A stretch of DNA of 54,509 bases from Blastocatellia bacterium. Lineage in GTDB: Bacteria > Acidobacteriota > Blastocatellia > UBA7656. Position 1 is the stretch's first letter. Every line of letters starts with the position of its first letter. The notes beneath the pieces were generated by a model. That model saw nothing but the letters and a program-made list of their open reading frames with translations. It was not told the DNA's origin and made no database searches. The DNA is taken from positions 1 through 54,509 of the forward strand of contig JAKEHD010000310.1 of the NCBI GenBank assembly GCA_022615215.1. The letters run 5' to 3'. Both the position numbers and the translations under genes were made by a program. Shown in pieces: positions 15,783 through 22,785 of the stretch.

Positions 15783-16931
15783 CTAAACTGCTTTATAAAA
15801 AGGTAGTTCCACGACCGAACCAGTTAAATATTCGTCCCACGTATTTATTTCAACTTCTGTGCCGGGATCGAAAAAACCATACTTGATATAGGCCATCGCT
15901 ATGACCGTCCCAAGCGTCTCGGAGCGAATGGCGCTCGTAACATAGCCGATAGTTTTACCATCTTTTGAAACCTTGTCTCCGGGCGAGGGCGCTTTATCGC
16001 CTGTCAGAGTCAGTCCGGTCAGCTTCTTGCTGATATGGCCGCGATAGGTAGCCATTGCGACCGCTTCCTGGCCCGTATAGCATCCCTTCTTGTAACTGAC
16101 AGCATCAGCAAGCCCCACCTCTAACATCATATTGCTCTCATCAACATCGACCCCATAAACAGGTATCCCCGCCTCGATTCTCAACGAGTCGAGCGCATCG
16201 AGGCCGAATGGAACGATCGAATGAAAGCTTCCCTTCAACAACAGGAAGTCCCAAACATCTTTCAACCCGTCTGCCGGAACCAGTATGTCATAACCCAACT
16301 CGCCGGTATGCGACGCCCTCACGACCATAACATGCTGACCTGCTATTATGGTCTTTATCCATTCGTGTTCGGCGAGCGAGGGCACCGGCTCGAAACAGAC
16401 CTCTTTCATCACGAGAAGAGATTTCCGGCCCTGAACCGATAGAATGCGGTAGAGGTCGGAACATTCTTCGACCTTGAAATCGCCCGCGTACGAAAACGGA
16501 AAGATGTATTTATAGATCTGTTCGTGAGTCTGCGGGTCGTTGACGATCAGGTATTCCCCTTCATCAAAGCAGAGGACTCGGCAAAGAGCTTTTACCTTCC
16601 CGTGCCCGGTCAAAAAGGCCGCTCGCATCCCCTTGCCTTTCGCGAGAGTCTTCACGTCGTTGGTGACCAGGCCATTGAGGAACTGAACGGATTCTTTTCC
16701 GCCGATCTTTATCGCTCCGTAAAATGACAGGTCTATCAACCCGACGGAATCGCGCACGGAGCGGTGCTCCTCACTGCGACCGCTGAAGCATCGGGCTATC
16801 TCCCAGCCGAAAAACTCGGCAGAGTCTGCGCCCAATTCTTTTTGACAATCGTAAAGAGGCGTCCTCTGCAATTTGCCCTGTGCTATCTCACCCATAATCA
16901 CTCTCCTGTCGATTGCGGTTTTGCAAATCAA
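15783..16931 (-). CDS. Aminomethyltransferase-family (GcvT/YgfZ-like) folate-binding protein
   Basis: 382-aa ORF. GLIDLSFYGAIKIGGK...FLNGLVTNDV and CYTGQE motifs. The probable true start is MGEIAQ at 16895. Confidence 0.8.
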   Translation of the reverse strand: MICKTAIDRRVIMGEIAQGKLQRTPLYDCQKELGADSAEFFGWEIARCFSGRSEEHRSVRDSVGLIDLSFYGAIKIGGKESVQFLNGLVTNDVKTLAKGKGMRAAFLTGHGKVKALCRVLCFDEGEYLIVNDPQTHEQIYKYIFPFSYAGDFKVEECSDLYRILSVQGRKSLLVMKEVCFEPVPSLAEHEWIKTIIAGQHVMVVRASHTGELGYDILVPADGLKDVWDFLLLKGSFHSIVPFGLDALDSLRIEAGIPVYGVDVDESNMMLEVGLADAVSYKKGCYTGQEAVAMATYRGHISKKLTGLTLTGDKAPSPGDKVSKDGKTIGYVTSAIRSETLGTVIAMAYIKYGFFDPGTEVEINTWDEYLTGSVVELPFYKAV

Positions 16932-18546: not shown

Positions 18547-18921
18547 TCAGACTGAAAACGAACTGCCGCAGCCGCAACTGCCGGACGCATTCGGATTGCT
18601 GAATGTAAAACCGGACCCCATGACCGAGGTAACGTAATCGACCTGGACGCCATCAAGGTACTGGCGCGAAAACATGTCTACGAATACCCTGAGTCCGCCA
18701 TGGTCGAGAATCTCGTCGCCCTGGCGGGGAGCATCTTCGATCTGCATAGAGTACGAAAACCCGCTGCACCCGCCGGGCACAACCCTTATTCGCAGGCCGG
18801 CTTCGGGTCCGGCGTTTTCGGCCTCGATAAACTTCTTCACCTCATTGATGGCTGTCTCCGTCAATGAAAGATTCACCTGTGTCGTAGTGCTCATCTGTCC
18901 TTCCTCTCCTTCATAATTCAT
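18547..18921 (-). CDS. Fe-S cluster insertion protein, IscA/ErpA (HesB) family
   Basis: 124-aa ORF. GCSGFSY and C-terminal CGCGSSFSV motifs. Confidence 0.9.
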   Translation of the reverse strand: MNYEGEEGQMSTTTQVNLSLTETAINEVKKFIEAENAGPEAGLRIRVVPGGCSGFSYSMQIEDAPRQGDEILDHGGLRVFVDMFSRQYLDGVQVDYVTSVMGSGFTFSNPNASGSCGCGSSFSV

Positions 18922-19247
18922 TATTCAGTATAAGGCATTTCACCTGTTTCAGCGGGGTCGGCGATCACTTCTCCGATCCCAGGAATCGCCTCGCGCAGGG
19001 ACCGCTCAAGCCCCAACCTCAAGGCTATCATAGAACCCGTTCCCGATTCGAACCGGCCTATCAAGGTCACTCGCACATTGGTTCCCTCAATGCCGCTCAA
19101 TTCCACATCGTTCCCATTTGCGTGAAGCGCAGGGCGAATGCGATCAAGAACCTTTTCGACCTGCTCCCGCGTTACTGAGAGATCAAGAGACATCCTTCGA
19201 TTTCCCAACTCGCCAACCTCCACTGGAAGACGCATTATAAATGCCAT
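18921..19247 (-). CDS. NifU C-terminal (Nfu)-like domain protein lacking the CxxC site
   Basis: 108-aa ORF. VEKVLDRIRPALHANGNDVEL matches the Nfu domain. The usual GACGSCPSS position reads GRFESGTGS, and the protein has no Cys at all. Confidence 0.7.
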   Translation of the reverse strand: MAFIMRLPVEVGELGNRRMSLDLSVTREQVEKVLDRIRPALHANGNDVELSGIEGTNVRVTLIGRFESGTGSMIALRLGLERSLREAIPGIGEVIADPAETGEMPYTE

Positions 19248-19285: not shown

Positions 19286-20368
19286 TTAATCGCCCATATT
19301 TATGACAGGCAATCCCCCTCCCTTCATCGCAGCTATACTCAATTGAGCAGCGACATTATCGGCTATATGCATAAAGGCTTCGGCCTGCGGGCTGTCAGGC
19401 TCTCCGATCACCACAGGCACTCCGTTGTCGCCGGATTCGCGCACATTTGTTGACAGAGGAATACGGCCGAGCAGATTCGTTCTAAAGCGATTGGCCAGTT
19501 CTTCCCCGCCCCCTGAGCCGAAGATGTAGTGCCGCTCCGAGCAATTACTGCAAACGAAGTAACTCATGTTCTCAACTATGCCGAGCACAGGGATGTGGAC
19601 CTGCTCGAACATATTGAACGCCTTGCGCACATCGGCCATAGCCACCTCTTGAGGCGTGGTAACGAGCACAGCCCCCTGGACCGGGGCCAGTTGGGCGAGG
19701 CTGAGTTGGGCGTCCCCCGTGCCGGGCGGCATGTCTATGACCAGATAATCAAGCTCGCCCCATTCCACATCATAAAGGAACTGTCGCACAAGCGTATGCA
19801 ACATAGGGCCGCGCCAGATCACAGGCTTGTCTCCAGGGTTCAAAAATCCCAGCGACATCACCTTGATCGAATGGGCTTCGTGCGGGAGGATTTTCTGCCC
19901 GCGAATCACAGGCTCTTTGGTGAGACCGATCATTATCGGCACATTCGGCCCGTATACATCCGTATCCAGCAATCCGACCCTTGCGCCGCGAAGGGCCAGA
20001 GCGACGGCCAGGTTGACGGCCACAGTCGACTTCCCTACACCGCCCTTGCCGGAACTGACGGCGACGATGTTTCGAACCCCCGGAATCGACTGCTTGTCGC
20101 CCATCCCGCGTCCTTTCGGCACTTCGGCTTCCATCTTTATATCGACCCCTTCAACTCCCGGCACGCCGAGGACAGCTTCACGAGCGGCTTCCTGAAGTTT
20201 TTCCTTCACAGGACAGGCCGGGGTGGTCAGCACGAGTCTGAATTTAACCTGCCCTCCTCGAATCTCCATATCACGTATAAAATTCAGCGCAACTATATCG
20301 CGATGGAGATCAGGGTCTTTGACAGTGCTCAACGCCGCAAACACCGCTTCCTCATTAACATTCGCCAT
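19286..20368 (-). CDS. apbC: Mrp/NBP35/ApbC Fe-S cluster carrier ATPase
   Basis: 360-aa ORF. N-terminal MIP18-like domain, deviant Walker A SGKGGVGKST and CSNCSERHYIFG CxxC motif. Confidence 0.9.
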   Translation of the reverse strand: MANVNEEAVFAALSTVKDPDLHRDIVALNFIRDMEIRGGQVKFRLVLTTPACPVKEKLQEAAREAVLGVPGVEGVDIKMEAEVPKGRGMGDKQSIPGVRNIVAVSSGKGGVGKSTVAVNLAVALALRGARVGLLDTDVYGPNVPIMIGLTKEPVIRGQKILPHEAHSIKVMSLGFLNPGDKPVIWRGPMLHTLVRQFLYDVEWGELDYLVIDMPPGTGDAQLSLAQLAPVQGAVLVTTPQEVAMADVRKAFNMFEQVHIPVLGIVENMSYFVCSNCSERHYIFGSGGGEELANRFRTNLLGRIPLSTNVRESGDNGVPVVIGEPDSPQAEAFMHIADNVAAQLSIAAMKGGGLPVINMGD

Positions 20369-21112
20369 TTATAATTCCTCTGTATCCCTCAATTGCCTGT
20401 CTATCTGCAAGCGCAGGATATTGAGGCTGCCGGGCTTCCCCGGCGGAAATATTCTATAATCACAACTCTGCGACCCGGCAGCTATACGGCACTCACGAAA
20501 GACATCCGTTTCAAGCAACTCTCTGTATAATCTCAACTCCTCATTGCATATCTGATCGTAAGAAGCGGCAACCGCAACCATAGGACAATTGCGCTGCTTG
20601 ACCAAATAGGATCCGTCCTGAAGTCGGCGAAACGTGATATCGTAGCCTCGCTCGTTCACAAGTGAGCATAGCTTTTTGACCCTTTCATCAAAACCGAGAC
20701 CTTCAAGTCTTGGTTTAAGTGAAGCGATGAGATCGTCAGCCTGTTCGCAAAATATCCTTGCTACAGCAGGCTCGCCGAACATCGTCTTGACCTGCCTCAA
20801 CACATTGAGAGCGAATGTATTATAGCCGGTGGGGAAAAGTATCTCGGCTTTGTCCGTAAGATAATAAACGTGTCCGGGTCTGCCGCGATCATGCCGCTCA
20901 ACATCGAATTCGACCAGCCCATCCCGGCGCAATAAATCGAGGTGTCGTCGAATGCTGACTTTGCTCACTCCCACAGCAGAGGCTATCTCCTCAACCGTCA
21001 TGCGCTTTTTCGTCCTGAGTCGCGCCAGTATCTCACTTCTGGTCTCTTTAAGAATGTTCGTTATAGCAGCTACCACAACCATTATGCTAGGCAGCATCAA
21101 AGGTTTTGTCAA
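20369..21112 (-). CDS. Winged-helix transcriptional regulator with C-terminal four-Cys cluster (SufR-like)
   Basis: 247-aa ORF. wHTH segment MTVEEIASAVGVSKVSIRRHLDLLRRDGLV. C-terminal C-x12-C-x18-C-x8-C. First gene of the apbC/nfu/iscA operon. Confidence 0.65.
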   Translation of the reverse strand: MTKPLMLPSIMVVVAAITNILKETRSEILARLRTKKRMTVEEIASAVGVSKVSIRRHLDLLRRDGLVEFDVERHDRGRPGHVYYLTDKAEILFPTGYNTFALNVLRQVKTMFGEPAVARIFCEQADDLIASLKPRLEGLGFDERVKKLCSLVNERGYDITFRRLQDGSYLVKQRNCPMVAVAASYDQICNEELRLYRELLETDVFRECRIAAGSQSCDYRIFPPGKPGSLNILRLQIDRQLRDTEEL

Positions 21113-21152
21113 CTTTTTTGCTATTAAAATCTGGAGCAGGCTAGATTGGGAA

Positions 21153-21182
21153 TTACAAATAGTCCTGGCAATAGGCTATAAT
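21153..21182 (+). promoter_or_regulatory. Candidate sigma-70 promoter of the encapsulin operon
   Basis: TTACAA (21153-21158), 18-nt spacer, TATAAT (21177-21182), in the 151-bp divergent spacer. Sequence match only. Confidence 0.45.
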
Positions 21183-21263
21183 CACGGCCTGATGCAAAAT
21201 CTCATTCAAAGAGGGCCGAATATTTGAGACCGAATCTCTAAGAAAGAGCTATTTTACGGATCG

Positions 21264-22091
21264 ATGCAAAATTTCGTTCATACAGGAAACCCCTTGACGG
21301 CGGATGAATGGGATGGTTTGACGAAGAACATAAGAGCGATAGGAAACGCGACGGTCGCACGCCGTTTCATTGAGGCGACCGGGCCACTCGGTCCAGGCTG
21401 CCAGACGGTTCCTATCGAAACCATCGAAGGTATTACAGAGGGGTACAAAAGTATTTCAGGGTCCAGGAAGGCTCTTCTGACAACCAGTTCCCGAAGCAGT
21501 GCTATAGTTCCCATCATCTCAAAAGACTTCGTCCTACACTGGCGAGACCTGGCGGAAGCAAGGTTGATCGGCAGAGGAGTGCCTTTGGCAAAAGCGGCCG
21601 CAGCCGCTTCGATCTGCGCGCGAAGCGAAGACAAGCTCGTTCTCTTCGGCCACACCCCGCTTGGTTATACAGGAATAATGAATGTAGAAGGCCGTAATAC
21701 TGTGACCCGACTTCGATGGCATTCTCCGGGAGATGCCTTCAATAACTTTACCTCGATAACGCGGCTCCTTATGAGCAAAGGTCACGACGGACCTTTCGCC
21801 GCCGTCGTCCACCCTCATATATTTGCAGGCATGCACAGGGTATTGAAAGGGTCTTCCCTGCTTGAAATATCTCATGTCAAGGCGCTCTTGACCGCCGGAG
21901 TATTCAAATCTTCGCTGCTTGCGCCGCGTACAGGCATGGTTGTTTCTGTCGGCAAGCAAAACCTGGAACTGGTAATTTCGGTAGACACCAGCGCGGCTTT
22001 TTTAGGAGCGAAAAAGATGAACCTTCCGTTTCGAGTCTTCAAAGCCGTTTATTTGCGCATTCTGAAAAGCGACGCTATTTGTACCTTTTAG
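21264..22091 (+). CDS. Family-1 encapsulin nanocompartment shell protein (linocin M18-like, HK97 fold)
   Basis: 275-aa ORF. N-terminal LTADEWDGL...ARRFIEATGPLGPG and C-terminal LELVISVD...FRVFKAVYLRILKSDAICTF align by eye with T. maritima-type encapsulin. An adjacent cargo gene carries a targeting peptide. Confidence 0.85.
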   Translation: MQNFVHTGNPLTADEWDGLTKNIRAIGNATVARRFIEATGPLGPGCQTVPIETIEGITEGYKSISGSRKALLTTSSRSSAIVPIISKDFVLHWRDLAEARLIGRGVPLAKAAAAASICARSEDKLVLFGHTPLGYTGIMNVEGRNTVTRLRWHSPGDAFNNFTSITRLLMSKGHDGPFAAVVHPHIFAGMHRVLKGSSLLEISHVKALLTAGVFKSSLLAPRTGMVVSVGKQNLELVISVDTSAAFLGAKKMNLPFRVFKAVYLRILKSDAICTF

Positions 22092-22121
22092 CGCCAACAC
22101 TTCAACCTGATCAGGAGGATT

Positions 22122-22472
22122 ATGGAAGCCAACAATGAAGATATCACACTGCTTCGCGACATACTTGCCCGCGAGCTTGGAACTATAAATAATTATCAGA
22201 ACCTGCTCTCCCGCGCTCAAAGGCCCGAAGTAAGGGAGTTTATAGCCCATATAATCGAAGAGGAAAAAGAGCACATCGCCGAATCCATGGAATTGATCAA
22301 AGAATTGGACCCGGCCCAGGCCTCCCTGTTTAAAGAAGGAAGCCACTGGAGAAAAGTGTCTCTTCAGCCTGCTTCATCACAAACAGGTCGTGCTTCTGCC
22401 ACACTCCCCGAAGATGATAATCATATCTCACCTCTCACCGTAGGGAGCTTGAGGCGCTCCGAGCAAGGTTGA
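22122..22472 (+). CDS. Encapsulated ferritin-like cargo protein (EncFtn) with C-terminal encapsulin targeting peptide
   Basis: 116-aa ORF with AGGAGG 7 nt upstream. Four-helix ferritin-like ExxH segment HIIEEEKEHIAESMELI. Flexible linker, then LTVGSLRR near the C-terminus (encapsulin cargo-loading consensus TVGSL). Confidence 0.85.
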   Translation: MEANNEDITLLRDILARELGTINNYQNLLSRAQRPEVREFIAHIIEEEKEHIAESMELIKELDPAQASLFKEGSHWRKVSLQPASSQTGRASATLPEDDNHISPLTVGSLRRSEQG

Positions 22473-22491
22473 CGCGCAAAGAGTAAATCCG

Positions 22492-22785
22492 ATGGATGAA
22501 GAAATATCGCCTAAAATGCAGGAATACCTTGAGAAAGTCGAAAGAGAGCTTGCACGGTACGAGCATCCCCTCTTCGATTGGCAAGCTTATACTGCTGAAC
22601 CGGGAATCGAAGTCTGTGTCTTCTTAAAGTACTCGGGCATTCACGATGATCCATATAGATTTCAGATCACCCCGCGAGAACTCGAAGCCCAGGCATTCGA
22701 ATGGGACTTTCAAAGACAACTATACAATTACCTTCACGACTATCTGGTCGAGATGTTCACCAGAAGCCCGCACATAAGAGAATGA
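22492..22785 (+). CDS. Hypothetical 97-aa protein, third gene of the encapsulin operon
   Basis: ORF lies 19 bp after EncFtn on the same strand. No recognisable domain, targeting peptide or signal peptide. Confidence 0.55.
   Translation: MDEEISPKMQEYLEKVERELARYEHPLFDWQAYTAEPGIEVCVFLKYSGIHDDPYRFQITPRELEAQAFEWDFQRQLYNYLHDYLVEMFTRSPHIRE

Follow-up and report, generated by a model that had tools for sequence, protein, structure and literature searches.

In family-1 encapsulin systems the cargo gene usually sits directly upstream of the shell gene (PMC8346489), and the published targeting peptide of the EncB cargo reads PLTV(I)GS(T)L (PMC11202242, Table 2). SufR-like regulators of the COG2345 family combine a wHTH (winged helix-turn-helix) domain and a GRP AT-hook with [4Fe-4S] ligands (C179, C192, E195 and C220 in SufR of Mycobacterium tuberculosis) and a CAAC-N6-GTTG-type operator, whose A/T-rich flanks are needed for SufR binding, 50 base pairs (bp) being required for full affinity in M. 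tuberculosis (preprint 10.64898/2025.12.26.696629). We analyzed a locus in which relatives of both lie back to back, on a stretch of 54,509 nucleotides (nt), hereafter the window, that forms contig JAKEHD010000310.1 of the soil acidobacterium assembly GCA_022615215.1 (Blastocatellia). On the plus strand a shell gene is followed by a ferritin-like cargo gene and by p97, a gene of 97 amino acids (aa); on the minus strand a SufR-like regulator is followed by the iron-sulfur (Fe-S) carrier genes apbC, nfu and iscA. All open reading frames (ORFs) listed by a first-pass annotation of this DNA were found where it had placed them. That annotation had joined the two sides into one regulon that senses Fe-S status. 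Comparison with about 50 related loci indicates that they are probably two separate back-to-back transcription units in a conserved frame, adjacent by ancestry.

Protein families were assigned with Pfam and NCBIfam models and their curated cut-offs, solved structures were sought by sequence search of the PDB, and synteny was surveyed by mapping the window proteins on the 80 best p97 loci, about 30 from Blastocatellia and 50 from other Acidobacteriota. The 275-aa product of the shell gene (21264-22091, plus strand) scores 184.4 bits with the NCBIfam equivalog encap_f1 (NF041155, cut-off 100) and 149.8 bits with Pfam Linocin_M18 (PF04454, cut-off 24.3, E = 1e-43). The HK97-fold encapsulin shell named by the first-pass annotation thus passes both encapsulin models, and its best solved-structure match is Myxococcus xanthus EncA (PDB 4pt2/7s20, E = 6e-69). 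A tyrosine recombinase is encoded 64 bp beyond p97, and the shell has a weak Pfam Major_capside match (22.9 bits, below cut-off), features that would suit a degraded prophage HK97 capsid gene beside an integrase. We give this explanation practically no credence: the shell passes an equivalog model, its nearest solved structures are characterized encapsulins, the neighboring cargo bears a targeting peptide, and the neighborhood holds no further phage genes. The recombinase itself is the chromosomal XerD (TIGR02225, 369 bits, cut-off 329.6), found in synteny in all Blastocatellia loci whether they have a shell or not.

The cargo gene (22122-22472, plus strand) starts 30 bp 3' of the shell with an AGGAGG in front, and its 116-aa product is a predicted EncB-type encapsulated ferritin-like ferroxidase. 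Its best matches are EncB_fam (NF058679) and PDB EncB (7s5c, E = 3e-12), aligned to EncB residues 21-88, and the precomputed Pfam annotation assigns PF22277 to exactly this protein. A hidden Markov model check for an encapsulated ferritin had a divided outcome, with EncB_fam as best match and scores under the curated cut-offs; TIGR04535, at 46.9 bits, lies well below its cut-off of 125, and the E-values of these sub-cut-off matches are significant. In an alignment of 20 homologs the di-iron residues E18, Y25, E48 and H51 (E-x6-Y and E-x2-H of a two-helix ferritin-like domain) are invariant. The window protein contains the segment EEEKEHIAE and has the C-terminus SPLTVGSLRR, in which the cargo-loading peptide PLTVGSLRR is encoded at 22431-22457. 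TVGSL is likewise invariant in the 20 homologs, set off by a variable linker, and the PLTVGSL of the window is identical to the published EncB peptide. The EncB match and this invariance bear out the earlier description of a ferritin-like cargo with a family-1 loading peptide.

On these comparisons the encapsulin is a predicted EncA/EncB-type family-1 iron-storage system with reversed gene order. It shares with M. xanthus EncA/EncB a shell nearest EncA, a cargo nearest EncB and EncC, the E-x6-Y ... E-x2-H di-iron residues and the identical peptide. It differs in its shell-to-cargo order, in a shorter cargo just under the EncB_fam cut-off, in its host phylum, Acidobacteriota, and in that the locus showed no counterpart of EncC or EncD. 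With the Flp/EncFtn operons of Thermotoga maritima, Rhodospirillum rubrum and Haliangium ochraceum it has in common a two-gene core of a shell and a ferritin-like cargo that carries its targeting peptide at the C-terminus; here, in contrast, the cargo lies downstream and its peptide is of the TVGSL rather than the GSLK/IGSLK type.

The regulator gene (minus strand) was listed as an ORF opening at TTG 21112. Because its homologs align only from residue 13 of this ORF, and the promoter described below falls inside the first 12 codons, the start is most likely GTG 21076 (gene 20369-21076). The spacer to the shell is therefore about 187 bp rather than the 151 bp given earlier, and the divergent layout itself stands. 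The protein matches HTH_20/HTH_5 (ArsR-type wHTH) and aligns at full length with SufR_cyano (TIGR02702) at a sub-threshold 81.7 bits (cut-off 178.8). The C-x12-C-x18-C-x8-C pattern reported in the first pass is present, and an alignment of the window protein with seven homologs shows its four Cys to be invariant, along with an RGRPG AT-hook and the whole string C-x12-C-x2-E-x15-C-x8-C. Numbered from GTG 21076, the invariant residues include C164, C177, E180 and C205, spaced C-x12-C-x2-E-x24-C, with an extra invariant C196. SufR of M. tuberculosis has the identical spacing from the second to the fourth Cys (x27) and likewise the Glu at +3. The regulator is a predicted [4Fe-4S] sensor and, from its sequence, a SufR-like member of COG2345; it is not classed as a SufR equivalog, because it scores below the TIGR02702 cut-off and does not lie beside suf genes.

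Directly abutting the regulator stop codon is apbC (19286-20368, minus strand), whose 360-aa product is an ApbC/Mrp Fe-S cluster carrier ATPase (NF008669, 356 bits, cut-off 348) with Pfam ParA and FeS_assembly_P domains. In L007, L014, L017, L020 and L030 the ApbC protein is only 277-310 aa long and seems to be without the N-terminal FeS_assembly_P (DUF59). The next gene (18921-19247, minus strand) encodes a NifU-like domain protein (Pfam NifU, E = 5e-12) with no Cys in its translation; the canonical CxxC position reads ESGTGS, and the protein therefore has no usual cluster ligation there. This Cys-less nfu was found only in the window, L001, L007, L014 and L030, that is, in 5 of the roughly 30 Blastocatellia loci, and in the metagenome locus L101. 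The last gene of the operon, iscA (18547-18921, minus strand), specifies an A-type Fe-S carrier of the IscA/ErpA family (TIGR00049, 124.5 bits, cut-off 58.8; Pfam Fe-S_biosyn) and is syntenic in almost all Blastocatellia loci. Domains, Cys pattern and gene matches all agree with the earlier description of a wHTH regulator with a Cys cluster that heads an apbC/Cys-less nfu/iscA operon.

The regulator keeps company with the carriers wherever it could be followed. Regulator-bearing loci were taken from GTDB genomes (n = 9) and from a metagenome scan with the regulator alignment, which yielded 18 loci, 15 of them with enough downstream sequence to be informative on apbC. In all 15, apbC comes next after the regulator, with nfu and/or iscA behind it. 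The apbC linkage also holds for homologs at 40-53% identity that have no encapsulin, whose divergent neighbors are a 2-oxoacid:ferredoxin oxidoreductase, a recombinase or a secreted protein. By gene order the regulator is a predicted member of the Fe-S carrier operon. It shares with SufR of cyanobacteria, Mycobacterium and Streptomyces the wHTH with GRP AT-hook, the C-x12-C-x2-E ... C spacing of the M. tuberculosis protein, a CAAC-N6-GTTG-type, A/T-flanked candidate operator over its own promoter, and its place as first gene of the operon that it presumably represses. It differs in heading apbC-(nfu)-iscA instead of sufBCDS, in its low SufR_cyano score, in one more invariant Cys and in a left operator half-site that reads TAGC, not CAAC. 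An uncharacterized COG2345 subfamily with the ApbC/Nfu/IscA carriers, not SUF, as its regulon is more probable than a link to the encapsulin.

A promoter of the regulator/apbC operon is predicted at 21084-21112 on the minus strand, with a -35 box TTGACA (21112-21107), a 17-nt spacer and a -10 box TAGCAT (21089-21084); it matches the consensus scan at 10 of 12 positions and leaves 7 nt from the -10 box to GTG, so the transcript is probably leaderless. All 28 loci that carry the regulator keep this promoter, and it also stands upstream of apbC in loci that lack the regulator. Overlapping the -35 box is a candidate SufR-type operator (21105-21131) that reads, on the regulator strand, TTTTAA-TAGC-N6-GTTGAC with an A/T-rich flank. 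Every locus conforms to the regulator-strand pattern TTTTA-(C/T/A)A(A/G)C-N6-GTTGACAAA-N16/17-TAnnAT-N6/7-start, and (C/T/A)A(A/G)C-N6-GTTG recurs with constant spacing in all loci with a regulator, even where protein identity has fallen to 40%. A perfect CAAC-N6-GTTG is present in L096, L097 and L101. The element agrees with the published SufR operator and its requirement for A/T flanks, and its position over the regulator's own -35 box is the classical geometry of a putative autorepression. The A/T-rich block could instead be a mere UP element. This is disfavored: regulator-less loci retain the promoter and lack the CAAC-type left half-site, and because the half-site is lost where the regulator is absent, we favor an operator. 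The candidate is the only exact match within the window, each spacer has one operator-like site, and a second operator sought near the shell promoter and elsewhere in the window gave nothing above chance.

The shell has a predicted promoter of its own. Its -10 box TATAAT (21177-21182, plus strand) belongs to a conserved GCTATAAT box upstream of the shells, which ends 6-9 nt 5' of the shell start codon in 10/11 shell-bearing loci; no recognizable -35 was found for this promoter. The two divergent units both look leaderless, and across many loci their -10 boxes end at a conserved distance of 6-9 nt from the start codon. In the window and in its closest relative, L103, TATAAT lies 81 nt upstream of the shell ATG owing to an extra leader of about 72-81 nt (21183-21263 in the window; compare L103:2000-2078), where all other relatives have 6-9 nt. 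The window leader opens with an 11-codon mini-ORF (ATG 21192, MQNLIQRGPNI*), the first 24 nt of which are similar to the true shell start. It is not conserved in L103 and is therefore treated as incidental. Because 29 of 61 positions of the leader match at an offset of 72, other offsets giving about 21, and because of the start-like first 24 nt, the sequence suggests a tandem duplication of the promoter and 5' end as its origin.

According to the first-pass proposal, the SufR-like regulator would control both divergent promoters from the shared spacer as one Fe-S-sensing regulon. The layout invites it: the divergent arrangement occurs in six GTDB loci including the window, in five metagenome loci and in the closest relative, regulator and encapsulin are limited to the same subclade, and tying iron storage to Fe-S demand would be physiologically sensible. 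Conservation of the pairing was found in part, with 6 of the 11 shell-bearing GTDB loci carrying the regulator and 5 lacking it. These five keep an identical GCTATAAT promoter. Conversely, the shell is absent from 3 of the 9 regulator-bearing GTDB loci and from 9 of the 14 informative metagenome loci. The sole operator-like site sits over the regulator's own -35 box, its distance to the shell start ranges among loci between 62 and 150 bp, and in the window its center lies about 75 bp upstream of where shell transcription probably begins. Together with the constant tie of the regulator to apbC, the single operator and a shell promoter that persists without the regulator speak against a common regulon, which we regard as unlikely. 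Also unlikely is the narrower version in which, in the lineage of the window, the repressor at 21105-21131 would additionally modulate the encapsulin promoter, either by bending the DNA or by an AT-hook footprint that extends further. If a common control existed, an iron megastore and Fe-S carriers would respond jointly to Fe-S cluster status, the first transcriptional link of an encapsulin to an Fe-S sensor. The first-pass annotation had called such a coupling undescribed, and our literature search agrees in that it returned no paper mentioning encapsulin together with SufR.

Two separate units remain the preferred reading, with several points on the other side. The spacers of L004 and L005 measure 62-66 bp, and a SufR footprint of about 50 bp could there reach the shell -35 region. 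Confinement of the regulator and the shell-cargo cassette to one subclade would also fit arrival as a single block. The tree used to trace their history is a neighbor-joining (NJ) tree of flanking core genes, built from four short proteins and unbootstrapped, and the promoters, leaderless starts and operator are predictions from conservation and consensus alone. For the encapsulin itself, the bit scores of the cargo lie below the curated cut-offs (EncB_fam, 78.2 vs 90; PF22277, 25.8 vs 27).

The history of the locus points to a variable slot. Blastocatellia share a stable frame consisting of a ygfZ-like gene, a membrane protein gene, iscA, apbC (minus strand), the variable slot, p97 (plus), xerD (minus) and lpxD (plus). 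In about 16 Blastocatellia loci the slot is empty and apbC diverges directly from p97. Six of the 11 shell-bearing GTDB loci have an adjacent cargo and five do not. The NJ tree gathers all 14 bare loci in a single clade and shows the clade of the window to be a mosaic. Several loci carry what look like deletion scars: a shell-type TATAAT is retained upstream of p97 in L022, a TTGACA-N17-TAGCAT promoter is stranded about 115 nt upstream of apbC in L006 and L015, and an operator remnant persists in L013. These scars point to repeated independent losses. GC content and GC content at third codon positions of the cassette gave no clear signal of horizontal transfer. Because, inside one Blastocatellia subclade, cassette, regulator, cargo and nfu were each kept or lost independently of one another, we attribute the adjacency to shared ancestry; the pattern suggests that the encapsulin stands beside the regulator through common descent at one variable slot and not as an obligatory functional unit. 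The locus is a clean comparative case of how history at a variable genomic slot can by accident produce a suggestive divergent layout.

As two units, the locus would work as follows. Unit 1, on the minus strand, would be an autoregulated Fe-S carrier operon of regulator, apbC, Cys-less nfu and iscA. By analogy with SufR, the cluster-loaded regulator (three Cys and one Glu holding [4Fe-4S]) would bind TAGC-N6-GTTG and its A/T flank through the wHTH and the GRP AT-hook, covering its own -35 box and so repressing the operon. Under Fe-S shortage or oxidative stress the cluster would be lost and the operon released. Unit 2, on the plus strand, would be a family-1 iron-storage encapsulin of the M. 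xanthus EncA/EncB type, with a shell expected to self-assemble and an EncB-like two-helix cargo that would be drawn in through its C-terminal PLTVGSL, oxidize Fe(II) and lay down an iron mineral inside the shell. This unit would be transcribed from its own TATAAT promoter and read through into the pre-existing p97. The candidate operator and the carrier regulon (ApbC, Nfu, IscA) of an uncharacterized SufR-like COG2345 subfamily are reusable by-products of the analysis and directly testable.

The inverted gene order noted in the first pass is a property of the lineage. Shell precedes cargo in 9/9 Blastocatellia loci that have both (the window, L004, L005, L014, L018, L020, L085, L087 and L103), and cargo precedes shell in both outgroup EncB-type loci outside Acidobacteria (L082, and L102 with a 4-nt overlap). 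The Corallococcus contig L081 has no shell upstream of encB. The objection that encA precedes encB in M. xanthus, which would have made the claim of an inverted order false, was dropped in view of the cargo-first outgroup loci; the literature search found no statement on the order of encA and encB in that species. In its reversed order the locus shows a known system rearranged in this lineage, and nothing points to a functional consequence. The occurrence of the encapsulin in Blastocatellia and its reversed order extend the catalogue of such systems and leave the understanding of them unchanged.

Seven loci (L001, L003, L007, L013, L030, L086 and L088) encode an intact EncA-like shell, 55-68% identical to that of the window, with p97 as the next gene and no cargo alongside. 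Their cargo must either be encoded elsewhere in the genome or the shells be empty. EncC and EncD of M. xanthus are encoded away from the shell. A ferritin fusion on the cargo-less shells was considered and rejected, as the apparent N-terminal extensions are artefacts of ORFs antisense to apbC. In the outgroup locus L082 (7356-8958) the genes after the shell encode an unannotated 315-aa protein and a PNPOx-like protein that binds flavin mononucleotide, the second of these perhaps a counterpart of EncD, the flavin-binding M. xanthus cargo.

The third gene of the plus-strand unit, p97 (22492-22785), begins 19 bp 3' of the cargo gene. It runs in the direction of the encapsulin genes, and in the window a common transcript with them is probable because the cassette happens to lie upstream. 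The first-pass annotation had listed it as an extra gene of the encapsulin operon; its distribution contradicts a place in the encapsulin system. The family comprises 377 homolog clusters with 30 invariant columns (145 cluster-50 representatives in an exhaustive profile search) and is present in 339 species-representative genomes, all Acidobacteriota and mostly without an encapsulin. No encapsulin lies near p97 in about 19/30 Blastocatellia loci, and one was found in 0/50 loci of other Acidobacteriota. Those 50 loci, mostly Terriglobia, have none of the neighbors of the Blastocatellia frame; in 45/50 p97 precedes a Methyltransf_28 (MidA/NDUFAF7-like) gene. The protein has no match in Pfam, NCBIfam or PDB sequences. 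Its AlphaFold (AF2) model (predicted local distance difference test score, pLDDT, 80) is an α-βββ-α arrangement, for which a Foldseek search of the PDB returned no significant fold match (best E = 0.095).

Could p97 nevertheless be a dedicated accessory or non-canonical cargo of the encapsulin, for instance an iron-release partner? It follows shell or cargo at 3-40 nt in all shell-bearing loci, in the seven cargo-less loci it takes the place directly behind the shell, and it is under strong purifying selection with conserved His, Asp, Glu and Tyr residues. Its prevalence in encapsulin-free genomes and its methyltransferase partner in Terriglobia argue otherwise, as do the lack of a TVGSL-like targeting peptide and of a fold match, and the rare fusions of the family (P0160 and P0178) are to an N-terminal low-molecular-weight phosphatase/ArsC-type (LMWPc) domain. 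We consider an accessory role very improbable. As a strongly conserved, phylum-restricted 97-aa family without known fold or function, p97 is a second reusable by-product.

Beyond iscA on the left flank, the minus-strand gene at 15783-16931 encodes a GCV_T-fold folate-binding protein that is syntenic upstream of iscA/apbC in about 20 Blastocatellia loci. It contains the motif KGCYTGQE, which we take to be the signature of YgfZ-type proteins, associated with the repair of Fe-S clusters, and the left flank looks like a broader Fe-S maintenance neighborhood.

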